Assembly (NCBI GenBank): GCA_030593885.1
Contig: JAUVGH010000005.1
Coordinates: 4,387 to 68,386 of the forward strand
Length of the DNA: 64,000 nt
Reading direction: 5' to 3'
Source: Methanomassiliicoccales archaeon
GTDB lineage: Archaea > Thermoplasmatota > Thermoplasmata > RBG-16-68-12 > SOIM01
Of this stretch, positions 6,566-51,426 are shown in pieces. Made by a program: the position numbers and the translations under genes. A model generated the notes under the pieces. It was given only the letters and a program-made list of their open reading frames with translations, made no database searches and was not told the origin of the DNA. The number at the start of each line of letters is the position of its first letter. Within the stretch, counting starts at the first letter, position 1.

Positions 6566-7482
6566 GTAGTAAGAAGCCGCTTGTCCTAATGACGCAGAAA
6601 TGCTTCATGCTTGAAGACCAGGCAGAGAGATTGAACAGTCTTGGCAGGGTGTCCTCAATTTCAATGAAACGCACAAATCCTGAGATTCTCTTCAAACAGC
6701 TCAATGACGCGCAGGTAATAATCGCTAAGAAGAAGTTCCTGGACTACGACAGACTGTATGAGCTAAGTGACCTCATAATCATCATACCATTTGGCAGGCT
6801 TGACTTTTGGGACAGGATTAATCATGAGGGATTGAAGCGCAATAATGTAGTCGTGAAACACATTCCACGTCAGAATCAGGAATCAGTATCCGAGTGGGTC
6901 GTCTTCATGATGCTTGCTCTATCAAGAAACTTACATGAGCTGGTTCGGACGAAAGAATCGGACAACAACATAACCCTGAAGCTGGGTTGTTCTCTCCATG
7001 GAAAGAGGGTGGCAATCTTGGGAAAAGGCAGGATAGGGTCGCACCTTGGACCAGTATGTGAGTCTTTTGGTATGGATGTCGCATATTATATTCGCGGCGA
7101 GGGTCTGCTAGATGTAAACGAAAAAGCTGACTTCGTGGTCAATTGCCTAGGTTTCAGACCTGATCGACCAGAAGCCCTAACCTCAGAGTTTTTCAGGGGA
7201 TTGAAAAAAGGCTGCTACTTCATCAATGTAGCATCACCATCGACCTATAGTCAAACAGCTCTGCTTCAAGCTTTGGAGGATAATATTCTGGCTGGTGCAG
7301 CAGACGATGTTGCCGGAGCGCATATAGGAAATGCTAATGACCCGATGTACCGAAAAATGCTGTCTCATCCGAAGATGCTAGTTACGCCTCATATCGCGTG
7401 GAGAACGGACCGTGAGGCTAGGGTTTCCTTTGATATGATGATAGACGCAGTTGAGGAATACTTGAATGAAAAAGGCAGGTAA
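6562..7482 (+). CDS. D-isomer-specific 2-hydroxyacid dehydrogenase-family protein
   Basis: NAD-binding motif GKRVAILGKGRIGSHLG and C-terminal TPHIAWRT are typical of the family. ATGA overlap with the upstream gene. Confidence 0.75.
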   Translation: MSSKKPLVLMTQKCFMLEDQAERLNSLGRVSSISMKRTNPEILFKQLNDAQVIIAKKKFLDYDRLYELSDLIIIIPFGRLDFWDRINHEGLKRNNVVVKHIPRQNQESVSEWVVFMMLALSRNLHELVRTKESDNNITLKLGCSLHGKRVAILGKGRIGSHLGPVCESFGMDVAYYIRGEGLLDVNEKADFVVNCLGFRPDRPEALTSEFFRGLKKGCYFINVASPSTYSQTALLQALEDNILAGAADDVAGAHIGNANDPMYRKMLSHPKMLVTPHIAWRTDREARVSFDMMIDAVEEYLNEKGR

Positions 7483-20397: not shown

Positions 20398-20976
20398 CCG
20401 AAGTCTAGATTTGGGCTGAAGTAATTAACTCTATCGACTTGAGGTTATTGCATTAATGGCCCGTTGGAAGGCTCCTTTTAAACAAAACTCTCCAAAATGT
20501 CGTTGTCGATGCTTCGAAGTCTTCTTCCTACATACTTCTGAGTAGTCATCAAGCAAAGGCCGTTTGGTTTCGTCGTGGATGATAATGAACTGCGACACTC
20601 TCGAACTGGGGAAAGACGAGAGCCAGAACAGTCTTGTATTACCCCAATTCGATATTGTGACTAGCCAACCGTTGTTAGATACCAATCCTGCATATGTAGT
20701 TGCCGCTGAGAGGCCCCTGAGTGATATCTCTATCGGAAACCGTTAATGACAAGTCAGACTGAGACTTGATCAGACTAGTAGAAGAGTTCAAGTGGTAGAC
20801 TGCAGGTCCTTATGTTTGCCTGGATGGCTTGGCAAGATATCTGAAGAACTGCTTTCGAGAAGATCGCAAGACGAGGGCAACAACATACACGAGTGTCGAG
20901 GGAAGAGGGAGCCTGACGAACCGAGAATCGAATTGATATATGAAGGCAAAGACTAATATTGAGACCGACCATTCCG

Positions 20977-21975
20977 ATGTGGAGGGTACATCTGCCGAGA
21001 ATCAAGGTCTTCGTAAGTTCGAGAATGTATGAGCTTGAGCCCGAAAGGGAAATTGCCCCGGAGATAGTGAGAGAACTGGGTTTCGAACCAATTCTCTTTG
21101 AGGATATGCCTGCTACTCCAAGAACACCTCAACAGGCTTTTCTTGATGGTGTCACGAGGTGTGATATTTTCGTCATGATTCTCTGGACAGGGTATTCCAA
21201 GGCTGTTCGACGCGAATATGAGTGCGCAGATAGTCTTGGCAAACCTATCCTCATCTTCATTAAGGACCTAAGAGGAAAGAAGGAAACTCGAGAGAAAAGG
21301 TTAGAGAACTTCATGAAAAAGATTCACTTTTACAAGAGATTCAGGAAACTGGCAGACCTACGGTCCCAACTAAGAGAAGGCCTTATCGAGGAGGTCTCCC
21401 GGCGATATCGAGAGAGGCCAAAGCGTTTTGATAACATAAAGGATGTCTACGAAGAGGCGACTCGTGTAGCAAAGGAGGCCCAAAAACGCCTTTGCATCAT
21501 TCAATGGACGCCCTCCCTGATACTAGGGGCCCATCCCTATGAACGTTCCGAAAAGGTCCACTATGAGGGGGGATTCGAGGAGATAATTGAGAATTGGGCG
21601 CGAAGAGTCAAAAACAACAGGCGACGGACCTTCATCTATGCATACTATGCCCCTTTCACTCGAGAGGACATCAGCGAGTATGGTTTGGAAGAAAGAGCAA
21701 GGAACAACTTGAAGAAGTACAAAGAGCTGGAGATCTTGTCTGGAGGGAGGTTCAAACTGCTCTCGATCACCGGTCCGTACCCACCACCCATCATAGAAGT
21801 TGGAGATGATAACTATGGCATCTGGTTTAGGTCAACCGAGCGATCTAATGTTGCTAGCATGGTTCAAAAAGACAAGTATGTAGCAGAGATTCTTGTGAAC
21901 CTCGTTCTCCAGCTGTCAGAAAGGGACAAGACCGAGGATGAACTCCTGCAAGAACTAGGCATCGACAAGTGTTAG
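20977..21975 (+). CDS. DUF4062-like (TIR/nucleoside 2-deoxyribosyltransferase-like) N-terminal domain protein
   Basis: The N-terminus KVFVSSRMYELEPEREIAPEIVRELGFEPILFE...CDIFVMILWTGYS matches the DUF4062 pattern (VFISS...L..ER..v...i...g..pv.fE...D.fv.il). The C-terminal 200 aa or so are unassigned. Confidence 0.55.
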   Translation: MWRVHLPRIKVFVSSRMYELEPEREIAPEIVRELGFEPILFEDMPATPRTPQQAFLDGVTRCDIFVMILWTGYSKAVRREYECADSLGKPILIFIKDLRGKKETREKRLENFMKKIHFYKRFRKLADLRSQLREGLIEEVSRRYRERPKRFDNIKDVYEEATRVAKEAQKRLCIIQWTPSLILGAHPYERSEKVHYEGGFEEIIENWARRVKNNRRRTFIYAYYAPFTREDISEYGLEERARNNLKKYKELEILSGGRFKLLSITGPYPPPIIEVGDDNYGIWFRSTERSNVASMVQKDKYVAEILVNLVLQLSERDKTEDELLQELGIDKC

Positions 21976-23184: not shown

Positions 23185-23338
23185 TTTGCAGATTATCGGG
23201 GGTTATATAGGACTTACCTGAATATTGGAACGCCACATGGTCTGCGGCAAATACTATTCTGTTTCAAATCGAAAAGAACAAAGAAATATGTTAGTGTTTT
23301 GAGTTTATGATGACAAGTGGCAGAACGAGATGCTTATA

Positions 23339-24865
23339 TTAGTCACTTAGTCTTTCGGCTTTGTTGCATTTAGGACATCTCAAGTCTATCATTGCTTGAT
23401 GAAATCTATCCTCATCAAATCTCCACATGTATTCCTCCAAATCCCTGTTCTTCTTGTTAAGGAGGTCCTCTTCATGTCGCTCGCATGTCATTTTCACACT
23501 CCTCGTTTTACTGTCTCCCTCTTTGTAGTAGAGGTACTCATATCTCTCCCTAGTGTGACCGTTGTCCTCCACAACAATCTTCAGAGTGAGGTGATCATCA
23601 AGAAGGCCAAAATACCTCAAGACCTTGTCTGCAAAGAAGTATCTTGGCTCACGTCTTTGTGAGGATATGTTGAACAGGTATCTTATTGAGATATTATCTT
23701 CAGCCAGGGATTCGATGTAGACTCTGCATTGTCTTGATATCATTTGTGCACCACCACTTCTTGTAGGTCTATGCCATTCTGTCAAATCGTCACACAACAT
23801 AACCCAAAGATAGATCAAACCTCTCTCGCCCTTCCTAATCACAACTTCTTTTCCAGAGTGATAAGCAATAGGTTTCAATATATATTGACTCACCATAAAG
23901 TCCCTGTCAACCCAAAAGTCACCTCCATCCCGCTCCGATATTTTATACTCGATACAATCATCTCTGCTGAATCTTCTTAGTTTGCTAACCAAAAGTAAAC
24001 AACTGATAACTCCGTGATCAAGCTTACTTAATAACGTAGAGAAGTAAGCCATTACGTTTGGTCGTGGGCAAATCCTATCCTCAGTCCTCACATATTCGCG
24101 GTCATTGATCTGCTTTATTACAAACTCGTTGCTGACGGGTTCTCGTTTTGGTTTTACGCTCAAGCTCAGTCTGTGCAACAGATAATCAAAAGCGTGCTTG
24201 TATGCAATAGGAAAATCTACCTGAAACGGTTGAAAACGTATGCCTTTGTATTCCTCCAGCATCTCCTCAAGAGATTTGTTTATGTTCTTAATTCTCTCAA
24301 TAGGATAGCCCAAGTCATGACACAGAGCCACAATGCAAAATTGTGCCTCCTTGTCTTTCGAGTACCACTCTCTGTCTATGTAATCCAGAAGCTTATGCTT
24401 TCTAAACATGTATTCCCCAACAAAGAAGAACCATAGAAGATGCCATGTATGGTCACGATACCATTCACCACTGCCGTAGAGCAATGTCTCGAAATTTCTA
24501 AACTTATTGAGATAGGAAGCGAGCTCGTTAACACCAGTAATATCCTCCTCAATTCTGCCACCCTTAGTGTGGAATGAATCATCAAGTCTTTTCAGAGCAT
24601 CGCGTAGTAATGATTTCCATAGAGTTAGTGTATCCTTGGAAAGATCGATATTTGCTTTGGTCATCTTTTCTAGCCCTTCCATATCTTCTTCTTTCTCATC
24701 CAGAACCGGGGTAATCTCCTCAAGTTTTGCTGATTCTCTCAAGAATCTTTTACATTTATTCCTTGTCTCTTCACTCAGAAAATCGATATTCTCTATTCCA
24801 TCTTCCTCTGCGAAGTATTCAGATAAGTTCTTACAGGAGAGTTCATCACCCGACAGAGCCATCAT
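23339..24865 (-). CDS. HD-domain-like protein with a C-terminal zinc ribbon, unknown family
   Basis: RDHTWH...ALCHDLGYPIE...LDHGVIS...IAYHSG follows the H..HD..H..(D/H) order of HD metal-dependent phosphohydrolases. The C-terminus is CERHEED...CPKCNK. The DNA is AT-rich. Confidence 0.55.
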   Translation of the reverse strand: MMALSGDELSCKNLSEYFAEEDGIENIDFLSEETRNKCKRFLRESAKLEEITPVLDEKEEDMEGLEKMTKANIDLSKDTLTLWKSLLRDALKRLDDSFHTKGGRIEEDITGVNELASYLNKFRNFETLLYGSGEWYRDHTWHLLWFFFVGEYMFRKHKLLDYIDREWYSKDKEAQFCIVALCHDLGYPIERIKNINKSLEEMLEEYKGIRFQPFQVDFPIAYKHAFDYLLHRLSLSVKPKREPVSNEFVIKQINDREYVRTEDRICPRPNVMAYFSTLLSKLDHGVISCLLLVSKLRRFSRDDCIEYKISERDGGDFWVDRDFMVSQYILKPIAYHSGKEVVIRKGERGLIYLWVMLCDDLTEWHRPTRSGGAQMISRQCRVYIESLAEDNISIRYLFNISSQRREPRYFFADKVLRYFGLLDDHLTLKIVVEDNGHTRERYEYLYYKEGDSKTRSVKMTCERHEEDLLNKKNRDLEEYMWRFDEDRFHQAMIDLRCPKCNKAERLSD

Positions 24866-25047
24866 AATTGCCCCAATGTCTACATCGAATATGAATGTTT
24901 CAAATAATATCCTTTAGGCTGTAGATTTGCGTCATACTCCACAGAGAAGTAAGTCATTCCCACATTCTGGAGTTACTTGTGATTCCCCATCCGTTGAGCG
25001 AATTCAAGGTAGTGGATCACAGAGTCTCTAAGTAAAAGGCTGTTTTC

Positions 25048-25905
25048 TCAGTCTGCCTCACAGTAGGATTTGAACCCACAACTCATGCATATCTCTTCGT
25101 TCTCACATTTCACAAAGTCATCTTTTCCAGACTTGGAATCCAAGTACTCGAATAGGACTATTGATTTCTCAGCCATTTCACTCATAAGGGAATCTATTTC
25201 TTCTTGCGTTGTCTGATACTCTTTGCTTTCCCCGATATCAAGAAAAACTACTTCAGTTCTCAGATGATTCAAATCCGAAAGCCCTTCTTGAAGTGCCCAC
25301 AGAATATATAGCTTCATTTGCCATTCATCTATTGCATCCGAATACGAGCTATCCGTTTTCCAATCTGTGATATATACCCTTCCGTCTCTAGATTTTGTTA
25401 TCAAATCTGGAACTAGCCAAAAAGAGTGCCCATCAATCACAATCTTACAATAGTCTTCATGCTTGATAATCTCCAGACCCTTGTAGAAGTCAAAGAATTC
25501 AGTAAAGAATATACTTACTTGCCTTTCAGCTTCTTCACCTATGCTAGACATGTCCTCCTGTGAAATCTCCTTGCCATTCAAAGCTTCTATTATGAATCTT
25601 CTAGGTTCGTCTTGAATTTCAGTTACAAGTCTTGAAACATATTGGAGTGCAGTATCAGGTCCAGAAACATCTCTTCCTCGGGACAGTTGATCAAATTGCC
25701 GTTTGATTGCAGAATGAACAATGTTACCTAACAAGAACTTGATGTTATGCATATGGTCTAGCATTCTCTTTGTTGTCTTCAAAATATGACCGTACTCTAC
25801 GTCATAGAACTTCACATATCGGTAATAGAAAGCACGTGGACATTCATCAAGGAGCGACTGCCGACTCCGTGACCAACTATGCCATTTCTTCCATTTTCCT
25901 TCCAT
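25048..25905 (-). CDS. Cas4/AddB-like PD-(D/E)xK nuclease with a four-Cys cluster
   Basis: N-terminal Cys in LLDECPRAFYYRY. The nuclease core is VPDLITKSRDGRVYITDWKTD (D...DxK), followed by the QxxxY motif QMKLYILWAL and the C-terminal CENEEICMSCGFKSYC. This is the Cas4-type Fe-S cysteine arrangement. Confidence 0.7.
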   Translation of the reverse strand: MEGKWKKWHSWSRSRQSLLDECPRAFYYRYVKFYDVEYGHILKTTKRMLDHMHNIKFLLGNIVHSAIKRQFDQLSRGRDVSGPDTALQYVSRLVTEIQDEPRRFIIEALNGKEISQEDMSSIGEEAERQVSIFFTEFFDFYKGLEIIKHEDYCKIVIDGHSFWLVPDLITKSRDGRVYITDWKTDSSYSDAIDEWQMKLYILWALQEGLSDLNHLRTEVVFLDIGESKEYQTTQEEIDSLMSEMAEKSIVLFEYLDSKSGKDDFVKCENEEICMSCGFKSYCEAD

Positions 25906-25907
25906 AT

Positions 25908-26423
25908 CTACAACTCTCTGAGTTTTTCAAATAGACTGAGCAACAACTCTTTTCCTTCTTCAATCTCTTCTGGAGTGTATTTCTTGGTGTATTGAAGTAA
26001 GGCCTGAACATAAGGATAGTCATAGCCTTCATTCAAAAGAAACCTGATAGATGCTAATTTCTCTAACTCCTGACTGCCATAGCTATTGAGTGTCTGGACG
26101 ATACCTGCAAAACGACTGTATGTTTCATCCTCTGAAGGTAATGATCCCTCCAAGAAATCACTGCCCTTTTTCGTAATCTCATACACATATTCCATTCCAA
26201 CAGAGTCTTCTGAAAGAAGTCCCATCTCACATAGAGAATCGATTTCGGATGCAAGTTCCCTAGAGAAAGGACCGAATATATTCCACTCGAATATTTCGCG
26301 AATAGGCATACCCACTTCTTTCGACAAGTAAAAAATCTTCTGGAACTTCTTTCTCCCATGAATTTCCTTGCACTTCTCTGCCGTGAAGCAAATTGGGACG
26401 TACTCTTCAAACATCAATATCAC
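25908..26423 (-). CDS. YwgA / SocA-Panacea (DUF4065)-like protein
   Basis: KKFQKIFYLSKEVGMPIREIFEWNIFGPFSRELASEIDSL resembles the K(L/F)QKLLY...W..GP(V/F) core of DUF4065/YwgA-type proteins. Its stop lies 2 nt before the nuclease start. Confidence 0.5.
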   Translation of the reverse strand: MILMFEEYVPICFTAEKCKEIHGRKKFQKIFYLSKEVGMPIREIFEWNIFGPFSRELASEIDSLCEMGLLSEDSVGMEYVYEITKKGSDFLEGSLPSEDETYSRFAGIVQTLNSYGSQELEKLASIRFLLNEGYDYPYVQALLQYTKKYTPEEIEEGKELLLSLFEKLREL

Positions 26424-26498
26424 TTTCCGTATTCACTATTAGTAAATATACCCTCAAGTAGGCATAGGGTAGAGGGTTAAGTGAAAGTGAAAGTGACT

Positions 26499-27734
26499 TC
26501 ATAGCAAAACTCCCTTTATGTCTTCCCGGCAGTCCTCTGGCACAAACAGCAATACTTCGTCGGGTGTGGCTAAAGCACCCAACGATTCTATTTCCTGTGA
26601 AATTTCCTTCGTACAATCCGAATTGATGAAAATAGCTTCTTCTCGGTCTTTTGGATGTGGCGTGTAAGGCTTATAAGCCCTCTTTGATGATAAATCTACA
26701 TAGGAACAATAATAGTCAATCTCGTATCCTTTCTTCTCAATAATTGATTCTATCTTCTCCTTCGATTCATAGAATTTCATGGCATCTTTCTTTTCTATGG
26801 TAATGGATTTTGATAGCTGCCTTCTGAAGAATCTATTTGAAAGATCCAGAAGAGTGGTATCTCCGGAATGTCTAACCTCTCTAATCAGAGAAAGTACGTC
26901 GAAGTCTGCAACACCAATGTATTCCGATAGACTTGTATCATCCTTCAGTATAGGAACAAAACTTTCGTCTAGAGTCAAATCCCCTTTCTCAAAAACACTT
27001 TTTGTCCGAGCTATCGTCTTCCTAACCAGTTCTTCGGCTGCTAGAGTCGAATGATGATAATACACTTGTTTGTGCATTTGGTATCTGCAAGTCAGATAAT
27101 GCTCTACAGCATACAATCCCCCCTTAGATACGTATATTTCATCGTTTTCAGTCAATCTGATTGTGTGGATAATCCGTTCAATATCAAATCTACCATGAGG
27201 ATTTCCAGTCAATAGAGAATCCCTCAACAAATAATCGAATCTGTCAACATCCATCTGACTTGAGATCAGTTTATGCAAGTATTCTGGTATGGTGCCAGAT
27301 GTAAGGATCTTTGAGACTTCCTTAGGTTCGAATCCATAATCCTTCAGCAAAGAGGATATGTTATGTTCTCCGCTTTCGATTATTTCTTTGGAGATTTGCA
27401 CGTGTGTCTTGCCAGGCATGATTTTGCTCTCTAGTGCATGGGAAAAAGGACCATGGCCAATATCGTGCAAAAGGGCTGCAATCGACAACTTCTCTTCATC
27501 ATCTTCAGTCATCTCCAAAACTTCGGCTAGTCTCTTCGAAAACCAGTATGTTCCTAAAGAATGACTAAACCTAGAATGTAGCGCATTTGGATAGGTAAAA
27601 TAGGATAGGCCTAGTTGGCGAATATACTTTAGCCTTTGAAATTCAACGGTATCAATAATCTTGTTTACTAATCCGTTCTTCTCAAACGAAACAAAGGAAT
27701 GTATCGGATCCGCGACTATCCTGTCCTCTACCAT
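26499..27734 (-). CDS. SAMHD1/YwfO-like HD-domain (d)NTP triphosphohydrolase-family protein
   Basis: RFSHSLGTYWFSKRLA...AALLHDIGHGPFSH...DVDRFDYLLRDS are the characteristic blocks of the COG1078/SAMHD1-type HD family. Confidence 0.75.
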   Translation of the reverse strand: MVEDRIVADPIHSFVSFEKNGLVNKIIDTVEFQRLKYIRQLGLSYFTYPNALHSRFSHSLGTYWFSKRLAEVLEMTEDDEEKLSIAALLHDIGHGPFSHALESKIMPGKTHVQISKEIIESGEHNISSLLKDYGFEPKEVSKILTSGTIPEYLHKLISSQMDVDRFDYLLRDSLLTGNPHGRFDIERIIHTIRLTENDEIYVSKGGLYAVEHYLTCRYQMHKQVYYHHSTLAAEELVRKTIARTKSVFEKGDLTLDESFVPILKDDTSLSEYIGVADFDVLSLIREVRHSGDTTLLDLSNRFFRRQLSKSITIEKKDAMKFYESKEKIESIIEKKGYEIDYYCSYVDLSSKRAYKPYTPHPKDREEAIFINSDCTKEISQEIESLGALATPDEVLLFVPEDCREDIKGVLL

Positions 27735-27756
27735 CGAAATACCATGCCACTCTTTC

Positions 27757-27764
27757 TATAAATA
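27757..27764 (-). promoter_or_regulatory. TATA-box-like element upstream of the HD hydrolase gene
   Basis: The minus strand reads AATATTTATAGAAAG, with the TTTATA core about 23 nt upstream of the ATG at 27734. Confidence 0.35.
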
Positions 27765-28194
27765 TTCCTCTCAATTCTGTCATACGTCACAAATACTCGA
27801 GTTCTGAGGTAGCGGTTCTACCCACCTTGTTCAGCACAGACTAGCCTCAGCCATGGAGGAGTCATCAACTGTTCGACCCAGTAGTCGGCATTAGTCCGAA
27901 ATCCTTGTCCCACGCCTCCTCTCAACAAGGAACTTGCGCAATCACAATGCGGCACAATCGTTACATGAACAAGGATGTTCCCCACTTTTTGCTATTCTGT
28001 CCATAATGCTTCCCATTCAGCTCTGAATCTCAGACCCAAAGGCTGAACAGAATGTCGCATTTCAATGAGAACGAAGACATTGCTTCTAATAGAAATGTGG
28101 TAACTCAACGCACACGAGAACTCTTCTGACAGAGTCGAATAGGCGCGATAGAGCTATAGTCTTTCAGTGTTTCTCCATATTCCAAAACCCTCAG

Positions 28195-29189: not shown

Positions 29190-30980
29190 GTGAAGGAAAA
29201 CGCATCAACATGTCACCGAGATACGTCTGTAAACGCAAGGAGGAATGTAAAGGAAAGGGAGAACGGACCAAGGCTTCCCAGGCTTGGTTCGAGCCTTGGC
29301 TGGCTCCGAGGGATTCTTCACCGAGGCTCGGGGCTTGGTATCTTGGTGGAGGTTCTCCTCTCTCTTCTCGGGATATCTCAGGTAGGAAATGCTGCCCACT
29401 CGGACGAGAAGGGAGCTTCGAACCGAAGCGACATTGCAGGCTTGCCCGGTCAGAAGTGGATTCTCCGCCGAAGGGACCGTACAGGCAAGCTGATATTTCT
29501 TGGCACCTTTGACCACGCTCCGAGCCCTCAAGAATTGGCTGAATACGGTCCGGGGCGCTTCAGCATTCTGACCGTGAAGCCGAGTCTGAAAGGCTGGGAT
29601 TCTGTTGTCATCCCTGCCAAGAAGAATGGGACTTCCAAGAGAACGTCTCCTTCTTCGCCGACAACGACTGGCGCGGCCGCAGTCAGGCCCAAAAACGGAA
29701 TCGGGCCGAAGATGGTTGGAAGTCGTAAGGTGCCGGAGGGGGGGTTAGAGAAGCCCATAAGGATGCATCCTAAGGAAGAGCGAACAAGCAAGCATGTCAG
29801 TACAAAACCAGTGGATGTGGTGACCTCAGATGTGAACAGTGTGGTTTCGAAAGAACCCTCTTCGTTGCCAATGACAGGAACCAACGTTCCAAGCACAGTA
29901 CCCCAAGATGACATCAATCATCAGAAGCCCGAATCGAAGAGTTTGCCGATCAGGAGGACAGAGGATCTCAACAGGAAACGGGTGTCGAGGGTCGACCAGC
30001 AGATCGTGCATGGAGAACCCAGATCCGTGATTTCAAACAATGTCGCCTATCACCCTCCAGAGCAGTCAAATATACAGACAGCCAGTCGTGTGAACTCCAA
30101 AGAAGACGACCGGCAACCAACGGAAAGATGTCCACGATGCCGGAAACCCTCATCTTCTCTTGTCACCTGTGACTTCTGTGGAGAGATTCTGTGCGCCGAC
30201 CGGTTCAAGAGCTGTCTCAAGACACACAATTGTCCCCAGTCCGTGTCGTGCTTCAATTGCGGAAGGAGAATTCCCAACGAACGAGCAGAGATTGCCCATT
30301 GGTGCAACCAGTTCCTCTGCGGCAGAAAGTGCCTGAAGAAATGCTGGATGGAGAATAGAGAAGAAGAGGAATGCAAACCTTGTGGAGCGATGGCCAACGG
30401 CGACGGTCCTGAAGGGGAAGAGGGAGACGAAGGAGGTGTCGAAATCAGAAATGAGAATTTGCCCGAACAAGAAGGGCCAGGAATAGCAGAAGAGGAGTGC
30501 CAAGAGTACGAATGTGAGGGTTGTGGAACCGACGTTGCGGCCGATGCTGTGGAATGCCCGCGTTGCGGATTGCTCTATGAGGAGGAAAACACGGAATCTG
30601 AAAATGAGGCCTCAGTGGAGGAGGAAAAACCTCAGCAGATGTGTAACGGGCAGTCAAAAGAAAAAGCATGCAGGAAATGTCAAGAAGAGAATTGCCAGGG
30701 AAGACACTGTGATGGCTACTGCAACCTATGTAATTTCCACGACTGTGAAGATAGATGCGAAAATGATGGACTCTGCAAGACTTGCGAGGATTACGCTGAT
30801 TGCGAGATAAGATGCAGGGAAGCCCCAGAACGTTGTGACAAGAGACACTGCCAAGGATTCGAGTGTAGTGACCGTACTTTGTCGCCTCCAGACTGTGATT
30901 TCGATTGCGAAAACTGTAATGACACGGGATGCTACTTCTTCGATCATCCGGCAGATGAAGAAGAAGGAGATGAGAGTTGA
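29190..30980 (+). CDS. Large Cys-rich, highly acidic multi-zinc-ribbon protein
   Basis: 596-aa ORF. The C-terminal 300 aa or so carry dozens of Cys in CxxC/CxxxxC arrangements (CPRCRK...CDFCGE...CFNCGR...CEGCGT...CPRCG...CRKCQEENC...CNLCNFHDCEDRC...CKTCEDYADCEIRC) and end in DEEEGDES. The start is uncertain. Confidence 0.6.
   Translation: MKENASTCHRDTSVNARRNVKERENGPRLPRLGSSLGWLRGILHRGSGLGILVEVLLSLLGISQVGNAAHSDEKGASNRSDIAGLPGQKWILRRRDRTGKLIFLGTFDHAPSPQELAEYGPGRFSILTVKPSLKGWDSVVIPAKKNGTSKRTSPSSPTTTGAAAVRPKNGIGPKMVGSRKVPEGGLEKPIRMHPKEERTSKHVSTKPVDVVTSDVNSVVSKEPSSLPMTGTNVPSTVPQDDINHQKPESKSLPIRRTEDLNRKRVSRVDQQIVHGEPRSVISNNVAYHPPEQSNIQTASRVNSKEDDRQPTERCPRCRKPSSSLVTCDFCGEILCADRFKSCLKTHNCPQSVSCFNCGRRIPNERAEIAHWCNQFLCGRKCLKKCWMENREEEECKPCGAMANGDGPEGEEGDEGGVEIRNENLPEQEGPGIAEEECQEYECEGCGTDVAADAVECPRCGLLYEEENTESENEASVEEEKPQQMCNGQSKEKACRKCQEENCQGRHCDGYCNLCNFHDCEDRCENDGLCKTCEDYADCEIRCREAPERCDKRHCQGFECSDRTLSPPDCDFDCENCNDTGCYFFDHPADEEEGDES
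29686..29814 (+). repeat. Repeat copy A1 (inside the Cys-rich gene), homologous to 34963..35091
   Basis: Direct by-eye alignment: GGCCCAAA..ATCGGGCCGAAGATGGTTGGAAGTCGTAAGGTGCC...ATGCATCC...CCAGTGG is shared, with roughly four fifths of positions identical. Confidence 0.85.
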
Positions 30981-31721: not shown

Positions 31722-34673
31722 TTATGACCTATCCGTGCTATCCTCGAGGCGACCCAGTTCCTCCTTGACCTCATCAACCTTCCCGTGCAGTTCCATCCCT
31801 ACGAATATGTTCAAGGCTCTTTTCAGGTGCTCTTCGGCCCTTTTGCCGTCACCCTTCTCTCTCCACATACGCCCGAACTCGTACAGGGTCACTGCCAGTT
31901 CTTTCTCATGCCCAATCTCCTCGAAGATCCTGATACTCTCATCGAAGCTATTGGCAGACTCCTCCCATCTCTCCTTCTCACGGTGGATCTTGCCGCAGAG
32001 TCTGCTTGACGTCCCGATGTTCTCCTTGAGGCCGATTTCCACCGCCAATTCGGATGCCTTCTTGCTGAATCCCATCGACTTCTCCAGGTTGCCCATTTTG
32101 AAATGAAGCTCCGCGATGCCGTTGAGGGCGTAGGACAAACCTGCTGGGTCGTCAATCGACTCGTGCATCTTCAGGCATTTCTCGTAGTGTTCCAAAGCTT
32201 GATGATACTCTCCCCTGAGTCCGAGTGTCACGCCCAGATTGCCGTGGGCACCCGCAATGGATTGTTGACTGCCGACCCTCTCGAAGATCTCTAGGCCCAT
32301 CTCGTTGTGGTCCAGCCCCTTGTCATAGTCTCCCATCTCAGAGTATGCGATGCCGATGTTGATGAGCTGAGCAGCAACGGCCGGTAATGCTCCCATACTC
32401 TCCGAGACCTTCATGGTCTCCGAAAACAGCTCAACTGCCTTCGCAAACTCTCCCCTAGTAGTATACACCACGCCGAGGTTGCCGGTGTAGGATGAAGCGA
32501 GGTTCCGGTCATCGGTCTTCCTCGCCGCCTCAAGAGCCTCCGTGAAGTATTCGAGAGCCTCGTCGCATCTCCCGGTATGGAAGCACAAAATGCCGATGTT
32601 GCTGAGGGATCCGGCAAAGCCCTTCATGTCACCAATCTTCCGTCCTATCCCCTTGCCCCTTTCAAAGCATTCGAGGGCTCCGTCGTAGTCCGCTCTCTCC
32701 ATAAGCACAAGTCCGATGACATTGAGTATGTTCGCCTCCTCCTCTGACTCCTCGCCCTCGACCAAGCGCAAAGCACGGTTGCAGACTTCGATGGATTCGT
32801 CATAGTCTCCACTCATCTTCAGCGCCCTGCCGAGCAACGCTCCGACTCGCGCCTTTCCCTTCGTCTCGTGTGCGAGTTCCATCGCAGCCCTGAGGCACTC
32901 AACGCTCTTGTCATGCTCACCGGTCAGCAGGTGGATTTCTCCCACATTCTCGAGGATTTCGACCTTCTTCTCCTTGTCAGACTCGAATTTGAGCGCCTTG
33001 GTATAGAATCTTATAGCTTCCTCATTCGAAAACTCCTTCTTCGCCCTCTCCGCCGCCTTCATGAGGTAGTGCAGAGCCTTGTCCTTGTCTCTGCAGCGAC
33101 TGTAGTGGAATGCCAGGTCCTCTATCACTTCTTCAGGGTCGTCCTTGTGCTGCTCCTCCATCGAGCCCGCGACTATCGAGTGGTACTCCATTCTGAGTTC
33201 TGGCGGTATCTGTTCGTACAGGACTTCCTTGATCTTGGAGTGGTCGAATCTGAACTCGCCATTCTGGGTATGAACGAGGCTGTGCCTCTGCTCCAACGTC
33301 CTCAAGTGTTCCAGCAACTGGACCCTTTCGAGTCCGGTGGCGGAAGCGAGAATGCTCGAAGTGAATTCCTCTCCAATGACGCACGCGTAGTCGAGGATTT
33401 CCTTCAACTCTCCTCCTACCCGATTGAGTCTGCGAGTGATGAGGTCGAAGATCTTGGACGGGATGTGCATCGTCTCCGGATCCTCGGATATCCATACTCC
33501 CTCGTGACTCCTGATCAGTTCTTCCTCGGCTAGTAGCTTGATCAGCTCTATCAGGAACAGCGGGTTTCCCTCTGCTTCCTCATAGACTCTCTTCATGAAC
33601 TTGTCGCTGAAGTCTGTCTCCCCGAGCATGGAGGATAGGAAGTCAGATGCGCTCTCCTGAGGCAGTCTCTCCAGCTCGATTCTCTCGCACAGGTCCTCCC
33701 GGCTCATCATCTGCATGGTCTCGATCAGAGGGTGTGTCTTGCCTTCCCTCGCCACGATGTCCTCGGGTCTGTAAGTGCCGATGAGAAGAAGACTGCACTT
33801 CCTCGTGGTTCTCGCCGTGTAGTGCATCAGTGCCAGGGAAGAGGGATCCGCCCAGTGGAGGTCCTCGATGCATAGCAGGGTTGGCGCGGTCTCCGCCTGT
33901 CGAGTAAGGCCCAAGGAGACATTCTCGAACAGGAGATTCCTTCGCGCCGCCGGGTCCTGCAGTCCGAAGTAGACTCCATCGTACTTACCCGACGCGACGA
34001 GCGGTCGGAGTGTGTCCTCGATTCCCCGCACGCTATCCTCGTCTCCGTCCCATTGACGCAGGACATCTCCGTGGTTCTTCTGCACCTTCACCAGGATGTC
34101 TCTCATGTCGTTAATGAGGAATTCGTTCTCTCGTCCTGTGAGGATTACAACGAGATTCGTGTCCTTTCCGCTCTCAACGAGAATTCTGTGGTTCTCGTAT
34201 CCCAGACTGTTCAGCATTCCTTCTCTTTCCTCTCCGCTCAACATCGACAGAGAATCCTTGACGAAATCTCCGACGGTTGTGAGCATGGAAGCGAACAGGT
34301 CTGGATCGAGTTCTGTCTCCTTCCGCAGAACTTCCTTGACCAACAAGCCTGTATTCGTCACTAGGTAGACTGCTTCCACTCTTGGTGCTTCCTCTGCGAA
34401 AAGTGATTCCATTCCTCCTGATCTCAATGCTTCCAAGAAGGGCATGTAGGGCGTGAGGGATTCGTACAGACTGTTTCCACTCAATATCTTAAAACTTTCC
34501 GATTCTGCTATGTTCTTGATCTCTTCCAACAGTCTCGTCTTTCCTATTCCTGCTTCTCCTGACATGAATAGGGTGGTTCCACGTCCCTGTGAGGCATTGC
34601 TCAGGTGCTCACGAAGCTCTTTGAGTTCATTCTCCCGACCTATCATTTCGGGCTGAAAGTCGAGCTGTGCCAT
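31722..34673 (-). CDS. AAA_16/STAND-type ATPase with a Roadblock/LC7-like insertion and C-terminal TPR repeats
   Basis: - Walker A is GEAGIGKTRL and Walker B is LLCIEDLHWADPSS.
- Between them lies a segment of about 100 aa, VEAVYLVTNTGLLVKE...LFASMLTTVGDFVKDSLSML...HRILVESGKDTNLVVILTGRE, with a Roadblock/MglB-like pattern.
- The C-terminal half has many TPR-like repeats.
- ATG 34673 is preceded by GGAGGG, so the ORF-track start at 34748 is probably spurious. Confidence 0.8.
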   Translation of the reverse strand: MAQLDFQPEMIGRENELKELREHLSNASQGRGTTLFMSGEAGIGKTRLLEEIKNIAESESFKILSGNSLYESLTPYMPFLEALRSGGMESLFAEEAPRVEAVYLVTNTGLLVKEVLRKETELDPDLFASMLTTVGDFVKDSLSMLSGEEREGMLNSLGYENHRILVESGKDTNLVVILTGRENEFLINDMRDILVKVQKNHGDVLRQWDGDEDSVRGIEDTLRPLVASGKYDGVYFGLQDPAARRNLLFENVSLGLTRQAETAPTLLCIEDLHWADPSSLALMHYTARTTRKCSLLLIGTYRPEDIVAREGKTHPLIETMQMMSREDLCERIELERLPQESASDFLSSMLGETDFSDKFMKRVYEEAEGNPLFLIELIKLLAEEELIRSHEGVWISEDPETMHIPSKIFDLITRRLNRVGGELKEILDYACVIGEEFTSSILASATGLERVQLLEHLRTLEQRHSLVHTQNGEFRFDHSKIKEVLYEQIPPELRMEYHSIVAGSMEEQHKDDPEEVIEDLAFHYSRCRDKDKALHYLMKAAERAKKEFSNEEAIRFYTKALKFESDKEKKVEILENVGEIHLLTGEHDKSVECLRAAMELAHETKGKARVGALLGRALKMSGDYDESIEVCNRALRLVEGEESEEEANILNVIGLVLMERADYDGALECFERGKGIGRKIGDMKGFAGSLSNIGILCFHTGRCDEALEYFTEALEAARKTDDRNLASSYTGNLGVVYTTRGEFAKAVELFSETMKVSESMGALPAVAAQLINIGIAYSEMGDYDKGLDHNEMGLEIFERVGSQQSIAGAHGNLGVTLGLRGEYHQALEHYEKCLKMHESIDDPAGLSYALNGIAELHFKMGNLEKSMGFSKKASELAVEIGLKENIGTSSRLCGKIHREKERWEESANSFDESIRIFEEIGHEKELAVTLYEFGRMWREKGDGKRAEEHLKRALNIFVGMELHGKVDEVKEELGRLEDSTDRS

Positions 34674-34704
34674 ACACCCTCCACAATCTCCATCATATGT
34701 CTTC

Positions 34705-34712
34705 TTATATAA
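34705..34712 (-). promoter_or_regulatory. TATA-box-like element (TTATATAA) upstream of the ATPase-TPR gene
   Basis: TTATATAA lies about 32 nt upstream of ATG 34673, with GGAGGG in between. Confidence 0.4.
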
Positions 34713-34912
34713 TTTGCTCTTTCCTGACTTTCTCCAGCTCCCTCCCAAGCTTCAGCTCCTCATAGATCTCCATGGCCTTGTCGAATTGCCCCTTCGCCTA
34801 GTCAGAATCGCCATTGGCCTTCCACATCAACCTGAACTCGGTGATAGCCCATCCGGGTGAAAGAATGACATTCAGCCCCCTTATCCTCGTGAATAGGTAG
34901 GAACGGTAAGTT
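34705..34912 (-). pseudogene. Relic of the C-terminal end of another ATPase-TPR paralog
   Basis: My minus-strand translation is ...GWAITEFRLMWKANGDSD*AKGQFDKAMEIYEELKLGRELEKVRKEQII*. It aligns with the C-termini of both intact paralogs (YEFGRMWREKGDGKRAEEHLKRALNIFVGM... and HEAGLMWKMKGDPETARNYLVKALEIFRKL...). It carries an in-frame TAG at 34798..34800, and nothing remains upstream of about 34912. Confidence 0.7.
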
Positions 34913-48202: not shown

Positions 48203-48336
48203 AGGGATGGCCTAGAGCAGAATTCGCGCCTCAACAAGATGGTTATCCTGAACGAAGTAGGGTACAGAGAAGTGTAGACTAGTCAATGAGCAGGATCTGG
48301 AGAAGACGAACTCGCAACTCCTGGAATAAACTATTT

Positions 48337-51300
48337 ATGACCGTATTCGGTTTTAGAGATGGAGGGGAAGCCCTGAAGTTAGATTTCCAGCCCGAGATGG
48401 TCGGTCGAGAGGAGGAGCTAAGAGAGCTTCAGGACCGTCTGAATGAAGCCTCGGACGGGCAAGGAAGGACTGTTCTCATCGCTGGAGAAGCTGGTGTCGG
48501 AAAGACAAGACTTGTGAACGAGCTGAAGGACATTGCAGCGGCCAAAGGATTTGCGGTTATGTCTGGAAACAGCATGTACGAATCATTGACGCCCTACTTG
48601 CCAATCTTGGATGCGTTGAGGTCGGGCGGTATGGAAACCCTTTTCGCGGAGGAGACTCCGAGGATCGAAGGTCTGTATCTGATAACGCACCAGGGCTTGC
48701 TGGCAAAGGAGGTCCTGAGAGAAGAGACCGGTCTGGATCCGGACCTGTTTGCCTCCATGCTTTCGACCGTTGGGGATTTTGTGAGAGATTCGCTGTCCAT
48801 GATGACTGGAGAGGAGAGAGAAGGAGCGCTGAACAGTCTCGGATATGAGAACTATACAATCATCATCAGCAGCGGCATAAGTGCCAATCTTGTGGCAATA
48901 CTCTCCGGCAGAGAGAACGAATTCCTGCTCAATGATCTGAGCGGGGTTCTATCAGAAGTCCACAGAGACTTCGGAAGCGTCCTCAAGGATTGGGATGGCG
49001 ACACAGAGAAGCTAGAGGGTCTCGAGAACCCGATGAAACCGTTGATAGCATCAGGGAAGTACGATGGAGCATACTACGGAATGGACAACCCCGAAGGGAG
49101 AAGGAATCTGCTTTTCGAGAACGTCTCGTTGGGGCTGATGCGGCATGCGAAATCCACGCCAACACTCTTGTGTATTGAGGACTTGCACTGGGCGGATCCT
49201 TCCTCACTGGCTATGATGCACTACGTTGTAAGGAACACTAGAGAGTGCAGTCTGCTGATGTTAGGCACCTTTCGGCCTGAGGACATTGGAGACACAGGAG
49301 GCGAACCTCATCCTCTGGTGGAAACGATGCAGATGATGAGCAGGGAGGACCTATATGAGAAGATGGAGCTGGCCAGGTTGCCCAAGGACAACTTGAACGA
49401 GCTCCTGTCAGCCTTGCTCGGAGAAGTTGACTTCGATGATAAGTTCAAAGATCTAATCTATCATGAGACCGAGGGGAATCCCCTCTTCATGCTCGAACTG
49501 GTGAAACTGCTGGTCGACGAGGGTGCGGTTTCTCCTCAAGAAGGGACATGGACGTTGGTCAAAGATCTTGGGACTGTCGATGTTCCCTCCAAGATAAACG
49601 ACGTGATTTTGAGAAGACTCGACCGCGTGAAAAGCGAACAACGGAAGATACTGGATTACGCTTCAGTTATTGGGGAGACCTTCACATCGGTTGTGCTTTC
49701 CGAAATCCTGAAATTGGACAGGGTTGAATTGCTGGAGCAACTAAGGCCCCTTCAAAAGACACATAGACTAATTCATCCTTTCAATGGGTGCTTCAGGTTT
49801 GACCACGCCAAGGTAAAGGAAGTGCTGTACGAAGAGACCCCGGAGGAGCTCAGAACGGAATACCATGCGATGATTGCGGATGCTATTGAGAGGCAGAATG
49901 AGGAAAATCTGGATGATGTGATTGGGAATTTGGCATATCACTATTATCTATGTGGGAACAAGAAGAAGGCACTCCAATATCTCACCAAGGCAGCGGATAA
50001 GGCGAAGAAGGAATACTCGAATGAGGAGGCGACAAGATTCTATAGACAGGCCCTAGACTGCGAGGAGAATCCAGACAAGAGAATGGAGATTCTCGAGAAT
50101 CTTGGAGACATCTATGGCTTGACCGGAGAGTATGAAAGAAGCATAGAATCCTATGAGAATTCGCTGCAACTGGCCGAAGAGGCAAGAGAGATTGTGGAAA
50201 TCAAATCGAAACTGGGAGGAATCTACGCAAAGATTGGGGAGTACGACCGGTCTATGGCAGTTTCTATCAAGGCCTTGGAGCTGATAAAGGGTGAAGACTG
50301 CGTTGAAGAGGCCCATGTCCTCAATAGGATTGGCAAAGTGCATTGGTTCAAAGATGAGTATGATGAAGCACTTCGGTATTTCGAGAACAGCCTGAGGATA
50401 GAGGAGAGAATTGATGATCCCGAGGGGATTGCGAAATCACTCATCAACATAGGTACCACGCATTTCCGCAGGGGGGACTTCGATAAAGCCCTTGAACATC
50501 TGGAGAGAAGCCTCAAAATAAGCAAGAAGATTGATGCCAAGGGATGCATTGCATCCTGCCTTTTGAACATAGGTAATGTCCGCTCTATTAAGGGGAAGTA
50601 CGACGAAGCCATTGAATATTACAGCAAGAGCTTGATGATATCCCAAGGAATCGGAGACCTATTAACCGTAGCCATAGTCCTCAACAACATTGGTATCATT
50701 CACTATGATAGAGGAGAATATGCTCTGGGACTTGAGTCCTATGAGAAGAGTAGGAAGATCGCGGAGAAGATTGACGATCAACAAGGCCTGTCGCGGACCT
50801 TAGGGAACATTGGGAGCATGTACGTAGACATGGATCAGTACGAGAAAGCTCGAGACTACTGCGAAAGGAGTTTGAGAATGTGCAAAGAAATCGGCACCCA
50901 GGGAATGGACCCGGTGAATCTCACCAACATGGGTGGCTTGAGTCTCGGATTGGGAGAATACGACAAGGCCCTGGAATACTGCGAGAGAAGTCTAGAAATA
51001 TCTGAGAGAATCGGAAGCAAGCAGAGTACGGCGGTCACGTATTTCATGCTGGCGGAAACCTATCTTCTCAAGGGGGACTTGGATAGCGCATCGCACTTCT
51101 GCGAAGCAGCAACTGATTTGTCCAACGAGATCGGTCTTAAGGTAATGGTTGGATGCACAAAGAGGATTCTCGGCATGATTTACCGAGAGCAAGGGAAGTG
51201 GGGGAAGTCTATTGAGAGCTTTGACGATTGTATCAGGATTCTCAGGGAGCTTGACGTGAAAAAGGAGTTGGGCAGAGCCTACCATGAGGCCGGTTTGATG

Positions 51301-51426
51301 TGGAAAATGAAAGGCGATCCAGAAACCGCACGAAACTATCTGGTCAAGGCCCTTGAGATCTTCCGGAAGCTGAATCTAGAGATGAGAGTGGAGAAGTCAA
51401 AGGAAGTACTGGATGAGCTTGCCTGA
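48337..51426 (+). CDS. AAA_16/STAND-type ATPase with a Roadblock/LC7-like insertion and C-terminal TPR repeats (paralog of 31722..34673)
   Basis: It is collinear with the other paralog, including LDFQPEMVGREEEL, GEAGVGKTRL, the insert IEGLYLITHQGLLAKE...LFASMLSTVGDFVRDSLSMM...YTIIISSGISANLVAILSGRE, LLCIEDLHWADPSS, and then TPR repeats. The start is uncertain. ATG 48337 is the nearest in-frame ATG upstream of the conserved N-terminus. Confidence 0.8.
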   Translation: MTVFGFRDGGEALKLDFQPEMVGREEELRELQDRLNEASDGQGRTVLIAGEAGVGKTRLVNELKDIAAAKGFAVMSGNSMYESLTPYLPILDALRSGGMETLFAEETPRIEGLYLITHQGLLAKEVLREETGLDPDLFASMLSTVGDFVRDSLSMMTGEEREGALNSLGYENYTIIISSGISANLVAILSGRENEFLLNDLSGVLSEVHRDFGSVLKDWDGDTEKLEGLENPMKPLIASGKYDGAYYGMDNPEGRRNLLFENVSLGLMRHAKSTPTLLCIEDLHWADPSSLAMMHYVVRNTRECSLLMLGTFRPEDIGDTGGEPHPLVETMQMMSREDLYEKMELARLPKDNLNELLSALLGEVDFDDKFKDLIYHETEGNPLFMLELVKLLVDEGAVSPQEGTWTLVKDLGTVDVPSKINDVILRRLDRVKSEQRKILDYASVIGETFTSVVLSEILKLDRVELLEQLRPLQKTHRLIHPFNGCFRFDHAKVKEVLYEETPEELRTEYHAMIADAIERQNEENLDDVIGNLAYHYYLCGNKKKALQYLTKAADKAKKEYSNEEATRFYRQALDCEENPDKRMEILENLGDIYGLTGEYERSIESYENSLQLAEEAREIVEIKSKLGGIYAKIGEYDRSMAVSIKALELIKGEDCVEEAHVLNRIGKVHWFKDEYDEALRYFENSLRIEERIDDPEGIAKSLINIGTTHFRRGDFDKALEHLERSLKISKKIDAKGCIASCLLNIGNVRSIKGKYDEAIEYYSKSLMISQGIGDLLTVAIVLNNIGIIHYDRGEYALGLESYEKSRKIAEKIDDQQGLSRTLGNIGSMYVDMDQYEKARDYCERSLRMCKEIGTQGMDPVNLTNMGGLSLGLGEYDKALEYCERSLEISERIGSKQSTAVTYFMLAETYLLKGDLDSASHFCEAATDLSNEIGLKVMVGCTKRILGMIYREQGKWGKSIESFDDCIRILRELDVKKELGRAYHEAGLMWKMKGDPETARNYLVKALEIFRKLNLEMRVEKSKEVLDELA

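Follow-up and report, generated by a model that had tools for sequence, protein, structure and literature searches.

A mobile three-gene cassette of a predicted dNTPase, a YwgA-like protein and a Cas4-like nuclease in a Methanomassiliicoccales archaeon

A compact group of genes lies on the minus strand of a 64,000-nt stretch of contig JAUVGH010000005.1 (positions 4,387 to 68,386; assembly GCA_030593885.1, Methanomassiliicoccales archaeon), the whole of which is referred to here as the window. An initial annotation of this DNA had described the group as an AT-rich cassette of four genes, a candidate defence or toxin-antitoxin module, and the four minus-strand open reading frames (ORFs) on which that description was built were all found where it had placed them. 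The first encodes a 411-aa HD-domain protein of the YwfO/EF1143/SAMHD1 type, a predicted deoxynucleoside triphosphate (dNTP) triphosphohydrolase (26499..27734), and is followed by the gene of a YwgA-like protein (25908..26414), by that of a 285-aa Cas4-like iron-sulphur (Fe-S) nuclease of the PD-(D/E)xK type (25048..25905) and, further downstream, by that of a 508-aa protein (ORF 23339-24865). The gaps of 2 nt and 182 nt reported between the last three genes are right, whereas the first one, given as 75 nt, has to be corrected. The second ORF spans 25908-26423 on the minus strand when it is read from a GTG (171 aa), and all 11 homologues start at MFEEY; therefore, translation of the YwgA-like protein probably begins at the ATG at 26414, which yields 168 aa and a first gap of 84 nt. 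The foreign composition claimed for these genes is borne out. Nowhere else in the window is the DNA as AT-rich as in this segment, where the GC content is 0.403 in the block 25028-28072 and 0.401 in the block 23275-24916 that holds the 508-aa gene, against a mean of 0.505 (standard deviation 0.03, minimum 0.447) in 527 segments of the same size elsewhere. GC at third codon positions is 0.39-0.44 in the cassette genes and 0.47-0.74 in the other genes. These values are the lowest in the window, which makes the dip larger than expected by chance.

The limits of the mobile unit were obtained by comparing the window with its closest relative, locus L006. At the DNA level, window positions 25028-28072 (3,045 bp) form one block that is 93% identical to L006, and outside this block the flanks of the two loci are unrelated. 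The shared block begins 338 nt upstream of the HD gene and stops 20 nt past the stop codon of the Cas4-like gene, just beyond a run of T; the next gene in L006 is a PLD gene on the other strand and not the 508-aa gene. The latter gene has boundaries of its own, as its nearest relative (L096; 69% amino acid and 78% nucleotide identity) matches the window over 23275-24916 only, that is, the gene plus about 50 nt on each side, and has no Cas4-like sequence upstream. In addition, no HD, YwgA or Cas4-like neighbours were found for the relatives of the 508-aa gene in L001, L003 and L005, over long flanks, or in L097. The boundary comparisons of L006 and L096 therefore resolve the AT-rich stretch into an operon of three genes and a lone gene, each mobile independently of the other. 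Thus, the claim of a four-gene cassette does not stand: the unit consists of the HD, YwgA-like and Cas4-like genes.

The non-coding parts of the three-gene unit move together with it. The upstream region (27735..28072, minus strand), at whose far end the block in common with L006 has its 5' boundary, is 93% identical to L006 7837-8171 with small indels. It contains the TATA-like box that had been noticed about 23 nt before the first gene, a TTTATA at 27757-27762, 22 nt before the ATG of the HD gene at 27734. Neither a small ORF nor a regulatory RNA could be retained as an explanation for these 338 nt, given that the indels break the ORFs, no Rfam family matches the region and its folding z-score is -0.59. 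At the other end, the homology with L006 finishes in the T-run (CCTTTTACTTAG; 25028..25047, minus strand) placed directly after the Cas4-like stop codon. Terminal repeats, an integrase and a tRNA target were looked for and not found for the cassette (the window has no tRNA), and the repeats present at the module boundaries are at chance level and not common to L006. A second TATA-like element (TATATTTA) is located at 26443-26450, in the 84-nt gap after the HD gene and about 29 nt upstream of the YwgA-like ATG, and could allow transcription of the YwgA-like and nuclease genes independently of the HD gene.

The three domain calls of the initial annotation for these genes were upheld, and the motifs on which they relied are present and conserved. 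The HD protein matches the Pfam families HD (54.2 bits; cut-off 22) and HD_assoc_2 (38.5 bits; cut-off 23.1), and in the PDB it aligns over residues 4-366 with EF1143, the Enterococcus dNTPase (2o6i; E = 1e-57), and with SAMHD1 (E = 1e-24). Its blocks HSRFSHSLG, LLHDIGHGPFSH and DVDRFDYLLRD align to identical blocks of EF1143, and it is presumably in these three blocks that the metal-binding and catalytic residues known from SAMHD1 reside. On sequence grounds, the protein is best described as a full-length dNTPase of the EF1143/SAMHD1 type. Its relation to the dGTPases of curated defence collections is more distant: the PADLOC dGTPase model matches residues 25-103 only (28.7 bits, E = 2e-7) and not the full length, and the NCBIfam dGTPase models reach 18-29 bits, with cut-offs of 152-511. 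An antiviral role is known for SAMHD1-type dNTPases in animals and for dGTPases in bacteria. To our knowledge, no mechanism of control has been described for the widespread EF1143/YwfO branch in prokaryotes.

The product of the second gene is a small protein composed of a winged helix and a helical bundle, in which the blocks KFQKIFYLSK and WNIFGPFS are conserved across the YwgA family. It matches the DarG models of PADLOC (E = 5.4e-9, model positions 179-308 of 329) and NCBIfam (E = 2.7e-7; 30 bits against a cut-off of 250), in both cases over the C-terminal domain only. In agreement with this, the best PDB match of its AlphaFold model (mean predicted local distance difference test score, pLDDT, 93.4) in a Foldseek search is the DarG C-terminal domain of the DarTG complex (7yk3; TM-score 0.64, E = 2.6e-5), the remaining matches being generic winged-helix proteins, and a YwgA-family profile also finds 7yk3 among PDB sequences, with E = 0.002 when built from 11 close homologues and E = 1e-6 when built from 74 diverse ones. 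DarG's C-terminal domain neutralises the DarT toxin by sequestration (PMC7003065). Judged by sequence and predicted fold, the closest characterised relative of the YwgA-like protein is this DarT-sequestering domain. The initial call of a YwgA/Panacea-like protein stands in its first half, with 31% identity to the YwgA of Priestia megaterium, and falls in its second one, as the window protein has no match to PF13274 (Panacea/DUF4065) even at E<=10, nor to any other Pfam family. Among 74 relatives, sub-threshold hits go to DUF4364 (14), HTH_45 (9), SocA_Panacea (8, best E = 4e-4) and the ABC-3C MC2 family (6); such weak hits make the YwgA family a remote cousin of Panacea and not a member of it. 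The family comprises about 2,100 representative clusters, nearly all of them stand-alone proteins of 160-190 aa. One homologue (P0023) is named 'YwgA' by JGI. When the model was compared with the predicted viral structures in BFVD, the best matches were uncharacterised Sulfolobus virus proteins (SSV4 A8TKI0, SEV1 and SPV2; TM-score 0.47-0.62), which could be viral winged-helix relatives or mimics of the YwgA-like fold.

The third protein belongs to the PDDEXK_1 family of Pfam over its full length (66.2 bits) and scores 16.8 bits with Cas_Cas4 (PF01930), under the cut-off of 22.7; PADLOC returns weak Cas4-like matches to Aga_Cas4-like_Nuc and Cas4. Residues C22, D167, W182, K183, Q196, Y200 and C273 are invariant in 23 homologues and C267, C276 and C282 nearly so, and D181 of the ITDWK block is a position occupied by D or E. 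The RecB nuclease motifs and the four Fe-S cysteines are thus all present, in what constitutes a distinct subfamily of 22 protein clusters. A search of the whole window found no tandem-repeat (CRISPR) array, and the seven flanking and ten large window ORFs that were scanned gave no match to a Cas or Argonaute model. A CRISPR association of the nuclease was discarded on the lack of arrays in the window.

The partnership between these genes was addressed by scanning metagenomes with a profile of the YwgA-like protein; 80 loci were annotated with our own profiles and gave 72 unique YwgA-like genes. An EF1143-type HD gene lies within 300 nt of 51 of the 72 (35 upstream, 12 downstream and 4 on the opposite strand), and when at least 1.5 kb of sequence is available on both sides, 20 of 21 YwgA-like genes adjoin an HD gene. 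The two genes occur in either order and often overlap. No other third gene recurs beside HD-YwgA pairs across unrelated loci, where only lineage-specific synteny is seen. The linkage reaches the bacteria, since the neighbourhood of ywfO (HD) and ywgA stated for Bacillus in the initial annotation was confirmed on a record of Priestia megaterium, in which an HD-domain gene is followed by a 169-aa gene; full-length identity to the window protein is 34% for the HD protein (E = 2e-64) and the YwgA identity given above has E = 5e-18. The adjacency in 20 of 21 cases, the lack of any other recurrent neighbour and the Priestia pair together indicate that the evolutionarily fixed partner of YwgA is the HD dNTPase, a link that is general across diverse metagenomic lineages, archaea and Bacillaceae.

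The association of the pair with the nuclease is recurrent and looser. The Cas4-like gene adjoins the YwgA-like gene in 8 of the 72 unique metagenomic cases, besides the window, L006, L007, L011, L013, L101, L103 and L104. The order HD-YwgA-Cas4 is found in L007, L011, L018, L101, L103 and L104 at 48-71% identity of the Cas4-like protein, and also, at 29% identity and with all nuclease motifs kept, in L024 and L046, two loci of high GC content; L027 and L065, which are cut 5' of the YwgA-like gene, show this gene and then the Cas4-like one. The nuclease gene usually starts 2-6 nt after the YwgA-like stop codon. In L013 (8897-10302) and L017 (3-1348) it has the opposite orientation, so that it and the YwgA-like gene converge across a 5-nt gap and remain neighbours, and both loci are flanked by ScpB-type housekeeping genes. 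Orthologues that stand without a YwgA-like gene nearby imply that the nuclease is tolerated alone. The core is the ancient YwfO-YwgA pair; the Cas4-like gene, a recurrent accessory, joined it as the third gene and is tightly coupled to it.

Whether the neighbourhood recurs in unrelated genomes, a check proposed at the outset, has a positive answer, often with defence genes nearby. At least 11 distinct contexts were found for the triad, which is rare: among 185,579 species-representative genomes, only 5 carry a Cas4-like gene (full-length in 4, a fragment in 1), and 2 of these have the full triad. All five are archaeal metagenome-assembled genomes (MAGs) labelled Thermoplasmatota, Thermoplasmata, Halobacteriota, Methanobacteriota or simply 'archaeon', and the relatives of the module carry Thermoplasmatota and other euryarchaeal MAG labels. 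Its GC content is under that of the flanks in the window, L006, L013, L015, L017, L024, L046 and L101 (0.33-0.36 against 0.43-0.49 in the last), and the triads that do not lie below their flanks sit on low-GC contigs that may represent donor lineages. Five contexts have genes of defence type nearby: TIR, DUF4365-dynamin and PLD genes in L006, a transposase and a HinfI restriction-modification system in L007, an EcoRI-type methylase and GmrSD-HNH in L104, an Eco57I-type methylase in L046 and, in the window itself, DUF4062, two STAND-TPR NTPases and a PLD/DrmC-like protein. A viral origin of the module was considered and rejected: Cas4-like relatives were not found in IMG/VR, and YwgA-like relatives were found neither in IMG/VR nor in GenBank phages. 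In L011 (1687-2926) a frameshift divides the HD gene of the triad into two ORFs, either as a pseudogene or by an assembly error, with the YwgA-like and Cas4-like genes intact. Overall, the three genes form a self-contained operon that is horizontally mobile and lies in a variable part of an archaeal chromosome rich in conflict genes. None of the four outcomes that the initial annotation had named as telling against it was obtained outright, these being a conserved core position with host-like composition in all relatives, a second protein outside the YwgA/DUF4065 family, a 285-aa protein without a PD-(D/E)xK fold, and no co-occurrence of the genes beyond this genome.

The HD-YwgA-Cas4-like architecture is not among the PADLOC v2 models, and no description of it was found in the literature, in line with the initial annotation, which knew of no named system with this gene set; likewise, no account of the function of YwgA or of a ywfO-ywgA mechanism was found there. 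All parts come from known superfamilies and partner-restrained dNTPase defence is known, and it is the arrangement that is new. The nearest relative of its core is the YwfO-YwgA pair of Bacillus and Priestia, with which it shares homology of both proteins, gene order and tight spacing; the bacterial pair, however, lacks a Cas4-like third gene and resides in core synteny, whereas the archaeal genes form a low-GC mobile cassette. The similarity with DarTG, in sequence and fold, is confined to the DarG C-terminal domain (7yk3), as the YwgA-like module has neither a macrodomain nor a DarT ADP-ribosyltransferase and its conserved neighbour is an HD dNTPase. With Panacea proteins (PanA/SocA), the YwgA-like protein has in common a small winged-helix-type architecture and a KxQKxxY...GP(F/Y)S-like signature, but the partner of YwgA is constant, while those of Panacea are hyper-variable toxins. 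The nuclease resembles Cas4 and the Argonaute-associated Cas4-like proteins in its RecB-type D...(D/E)xK...QxxxY motifs, its N-terminal cysteine and its C-terminal CxxCx5C Fe-S signature, and departs from Cas4 in its sub-threshold family score and in the lack of arrays in the window and of Cas or Argonaute matches among the scanned ORFs. With SAMHD1, the module shares the idea of antiviral dNTP depletion. A functional parallel is offered by Clover, in which CloB restrains the CloA dNTPase until infection (PMC12265719). In both systems an HD-family dNTP hydrolase lies beside a partner, and the restraint described for Clover (PMC12265719) is what we infer here. The partner differs, being a winged-helix protein similar to the DarG C-terminal domain in the cassette and a nucleotidyltransferase in the case of CloB, and no nucleotidyltransferase family was matched. 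With respect to both Clover and the single-gene dGTPase defences, the HD protein of the cassette belongs to the EF1143/YwfO branch and a nuclease gene has been added.

The reading preferred here, which is put forward tentatively, is that the cassette is a conflict module directed against viruses or plasmids that combines gated nucleotide depletion with a nuclease. By analogy with DarTG and Clover, the YwgA-like protein would bind the dNTPase and hold it in check; this step is proposed because of the homology to the DarT-sequestering domain and of the near-obligate, often overlapping coupling of the two genes. A cue from infection or DNA damage would lift the restraint, the freed dNTPase would hydrolyse the dNTP pool and starve viral or plasmid replication, and the Cas4-like nuclease may degrade or process exposed DNA ends. 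A bolder and rather doubtful extension holds that YwfO-YwgA is in general an unrecognised toxin-antitoxin-like switch, in which a protein related to the DarG C-terminal domain and to Panacea gates a SAMHD1-type dNTPase, and that the triad is a new archaeal antiviral system in which triggered depletion of dNTPs is coupled to attack of the nuclease on the DNA of the invader. What does not depend on these proposals is that a small homologue of a toxin-sequestering domain is the near-obligate genomic partner of an EF1143/YwfO-type dNTPase, and that in some archaea the pair has acquired a gene for a Cas4-like nuclease and acts as a mobile defence cassette would. Were the gating real, it would represent a protein-based regulation of nucleotide-depletion immunity, an archaeal defence system would have been assembled from three familiar parts in a new arrangement, and YwgA, an orphan gene of Bacillus subtilis, would acquire a function through a hypothesis that is directly testable in that organism.

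The main and serious rival, although unlikely, is a housekeeping role, in which regulation or sanitation of the dNTP pool falls to the HD-YwgA pair and DNA repair or end processing to the Cas4-like protein as a 5'-3' nuclease, the whole being a transferable unit that displaces resident analogues. Several observations weigh against a conflict module and fit this alternative. The Bacillaceae pair is embedded in core synteny between rsfA and ywhD/speEB (pta, hemQ, rsfA, HD gene, 169-aa gene, ywhD, PBP1A, speE and speB in Priestia), and YwfO has been discussed among the housekeeping nucleotide hydrolases that a minimal genome retains (PMC4993169). A number of triad contexts are of housekeeping nature, with neighbours such as ScpB (L013, L017), PEP synthase and malate dehydrogenase. 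In three of them a gene for a Ham1-like inosine triphosphatase (ITPase; a non-canonical purine NTP pyrophosphatase) lies directly upstream of the HD gene (L011 966-1511, L101 3428-3985 and L103 1817-2276); in L103 this gene is split and matches the triad in its high AT content, and in L101 its GC content is host-like. The triad of L101 is located among core genes, with fibrillarin/RIO1/Ham1 on one side and a GTPase/RNase H cluster on the other, and directly adjoins a resident HD paralogue on the opposite strand (6973-7341, equivalent to L102/L015 1720-1992), truncated to the N-terminal ~100 residues (39% identity to the triad HD protein) and next to a second, 252-aa Cas4-family gene. This remnant looks like a native housekeeping gene displaced by the incoming cassette. 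Cas4-like orthologues (68% identity) are solitary in L008 and L012, without HD-YwgA and in housekeeping contexts. Furthermore, no component reaches the threshold of a curated defence model in PADLOC or NCBIfam. A housekeeping unit, however, would be expected to keep a stable position across a lineage, and the module is instead extremely patchy among archaea, exists as a near-identical copy within unrelated flanks (L006) and has a GC content under that of its flanks in most contexts, even in L101. By raw count, restriction-modification, TIR, PLD or STAND genes lie beside it in five contexts. The conflict, housekeeping and addiction readings are not mutually exclusive, as SAMHD1 shows.

Next comes the improbable possibility of a selfish addiction module, with the dNTPase as toxin, the YwgA-like protein as antitoxin and the nuclease as a passenger or second toxin, that persists through post-segregational effects. 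The homology of YwgA to a toxin-sequestering antitoxin domain (PMC7003065), its weak Panacea and MC2 affinities, the tight coupling of the pair in both gene orders and the mobility and low GC content of the cassette would all agree with it. By contrast, the stable residence of the pair in the core genome of Bacillaceae is unusual for addiction modules, and the L011 locus with a frameshifted HD gene beside intact YwgA-like and Cas4-like genes is compatible with addiction without being diagnostic of it.

Very improbable is the PanA-type toxin-antitoxin pair contemplated in the initial annotation, with the Cas4-like nuclease as the toxin neutralised by the YwgA-like protein and the HD genes as accessories. 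The distance of 2 nt from the YwgA-like stop codon to the Cas4-like start, maintained in the window, L006, L007, L011 and L015, and the SocA_Panacea hits of 8 of the 74 family members speak in its favour. Nevertheless, a Cas4-like neighbour accompanies only 8 of the 72 YwgA-like genes, almost all of which have an HD neighbour, and the window protein itself has no PF13274 hit. The fact that the nuclease can stand alone (L008, L012) or be inverted relative to YwgA (L013, L017) argues against a YwgA-nuclease toxin-antitoxin pairing and favours a real but looser link of the nuclease with the pair.

Finally, the least probable proposal of all is that of a true system of four genes, with the 508-aa protein acting together with the triad, for the adjacency, common strand and common low GC content of the four genes in the window, together with the presence in L078 of a distant 508-aa member at some 0.8 kb from a YwgA-HD pair (notable for a family of 18 clusters), are set against the closest triad copy without the 508-aa gene, the isolated transfer of this gene in L096, the relatives in L001, L003, L005 and L097 without triad genes, and the 182-nt gap with its own AT-rich promoter-like region.

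The 508-aa gene is a separate single-gene mobile unit (23275..24916, minus strand), with its own AT-rich promoter region and a T-rich 3' end. Its family comprises 18 clusters in 5.8 billion sequences, with members in L001, L003, L005, L078 and L096-L100 and in three IMG/VR contigs, and its relatives sit beside LRR/Ras-like GTPases, RelA-SpoT-TPR, plasmid type I restriction-modification or DUF87/TIR/UvrD genes. The proximity to a YwgA-HD pair in L078 is read as a shared island habitat rather than as a functional link. YRDHxxH, HDLG, HG..S, H and D..R are invariant in the family, an H/HD/H/H/D pattern that is the basis of the former designation as a second HD/zinc-ribbon protein. The protein has no match in Pfam, NCBIfam, PADLOC or PDB sequences, and a Foldseek search of the PDB returned nothing below E = 0.1. 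Membership of the HD superfamily is without statistical support: with Pfam, matches to HD or Cas3_HD are limited to 2 of the 18 members, at E = 0.06-0.16, and an hhalign comparison of the family with SAMHD1-type HD proteins covers 17 columns with 4% probability. As for the zinc ribbon, a single CPKC, instead of the two conserved CxxC pairs of such a domain, occurs in only 2 of the 18 members, and the tail of the modelled protein has pLDDT below 50.

Other genes of the window also belong to conflict-type families, namely the DUF4062 gene (20959-21975), the two STAND NTPases of the AAA_16-TPR type, each about 1,000 aa long (31722-34748 and 48286-51426) and the 879-aa PLD/DrmC-like protein (51578-54217). 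Most ORFs between 13 and 38 kb of the window have no Pfam family, and the window contains many ORFans. Among the ORFs without a Pfam or PADLOC match, one of 596 aa on the plus strand (29190-30980) displays a C-terminal half dense in cysteine motifs and acidic runs.

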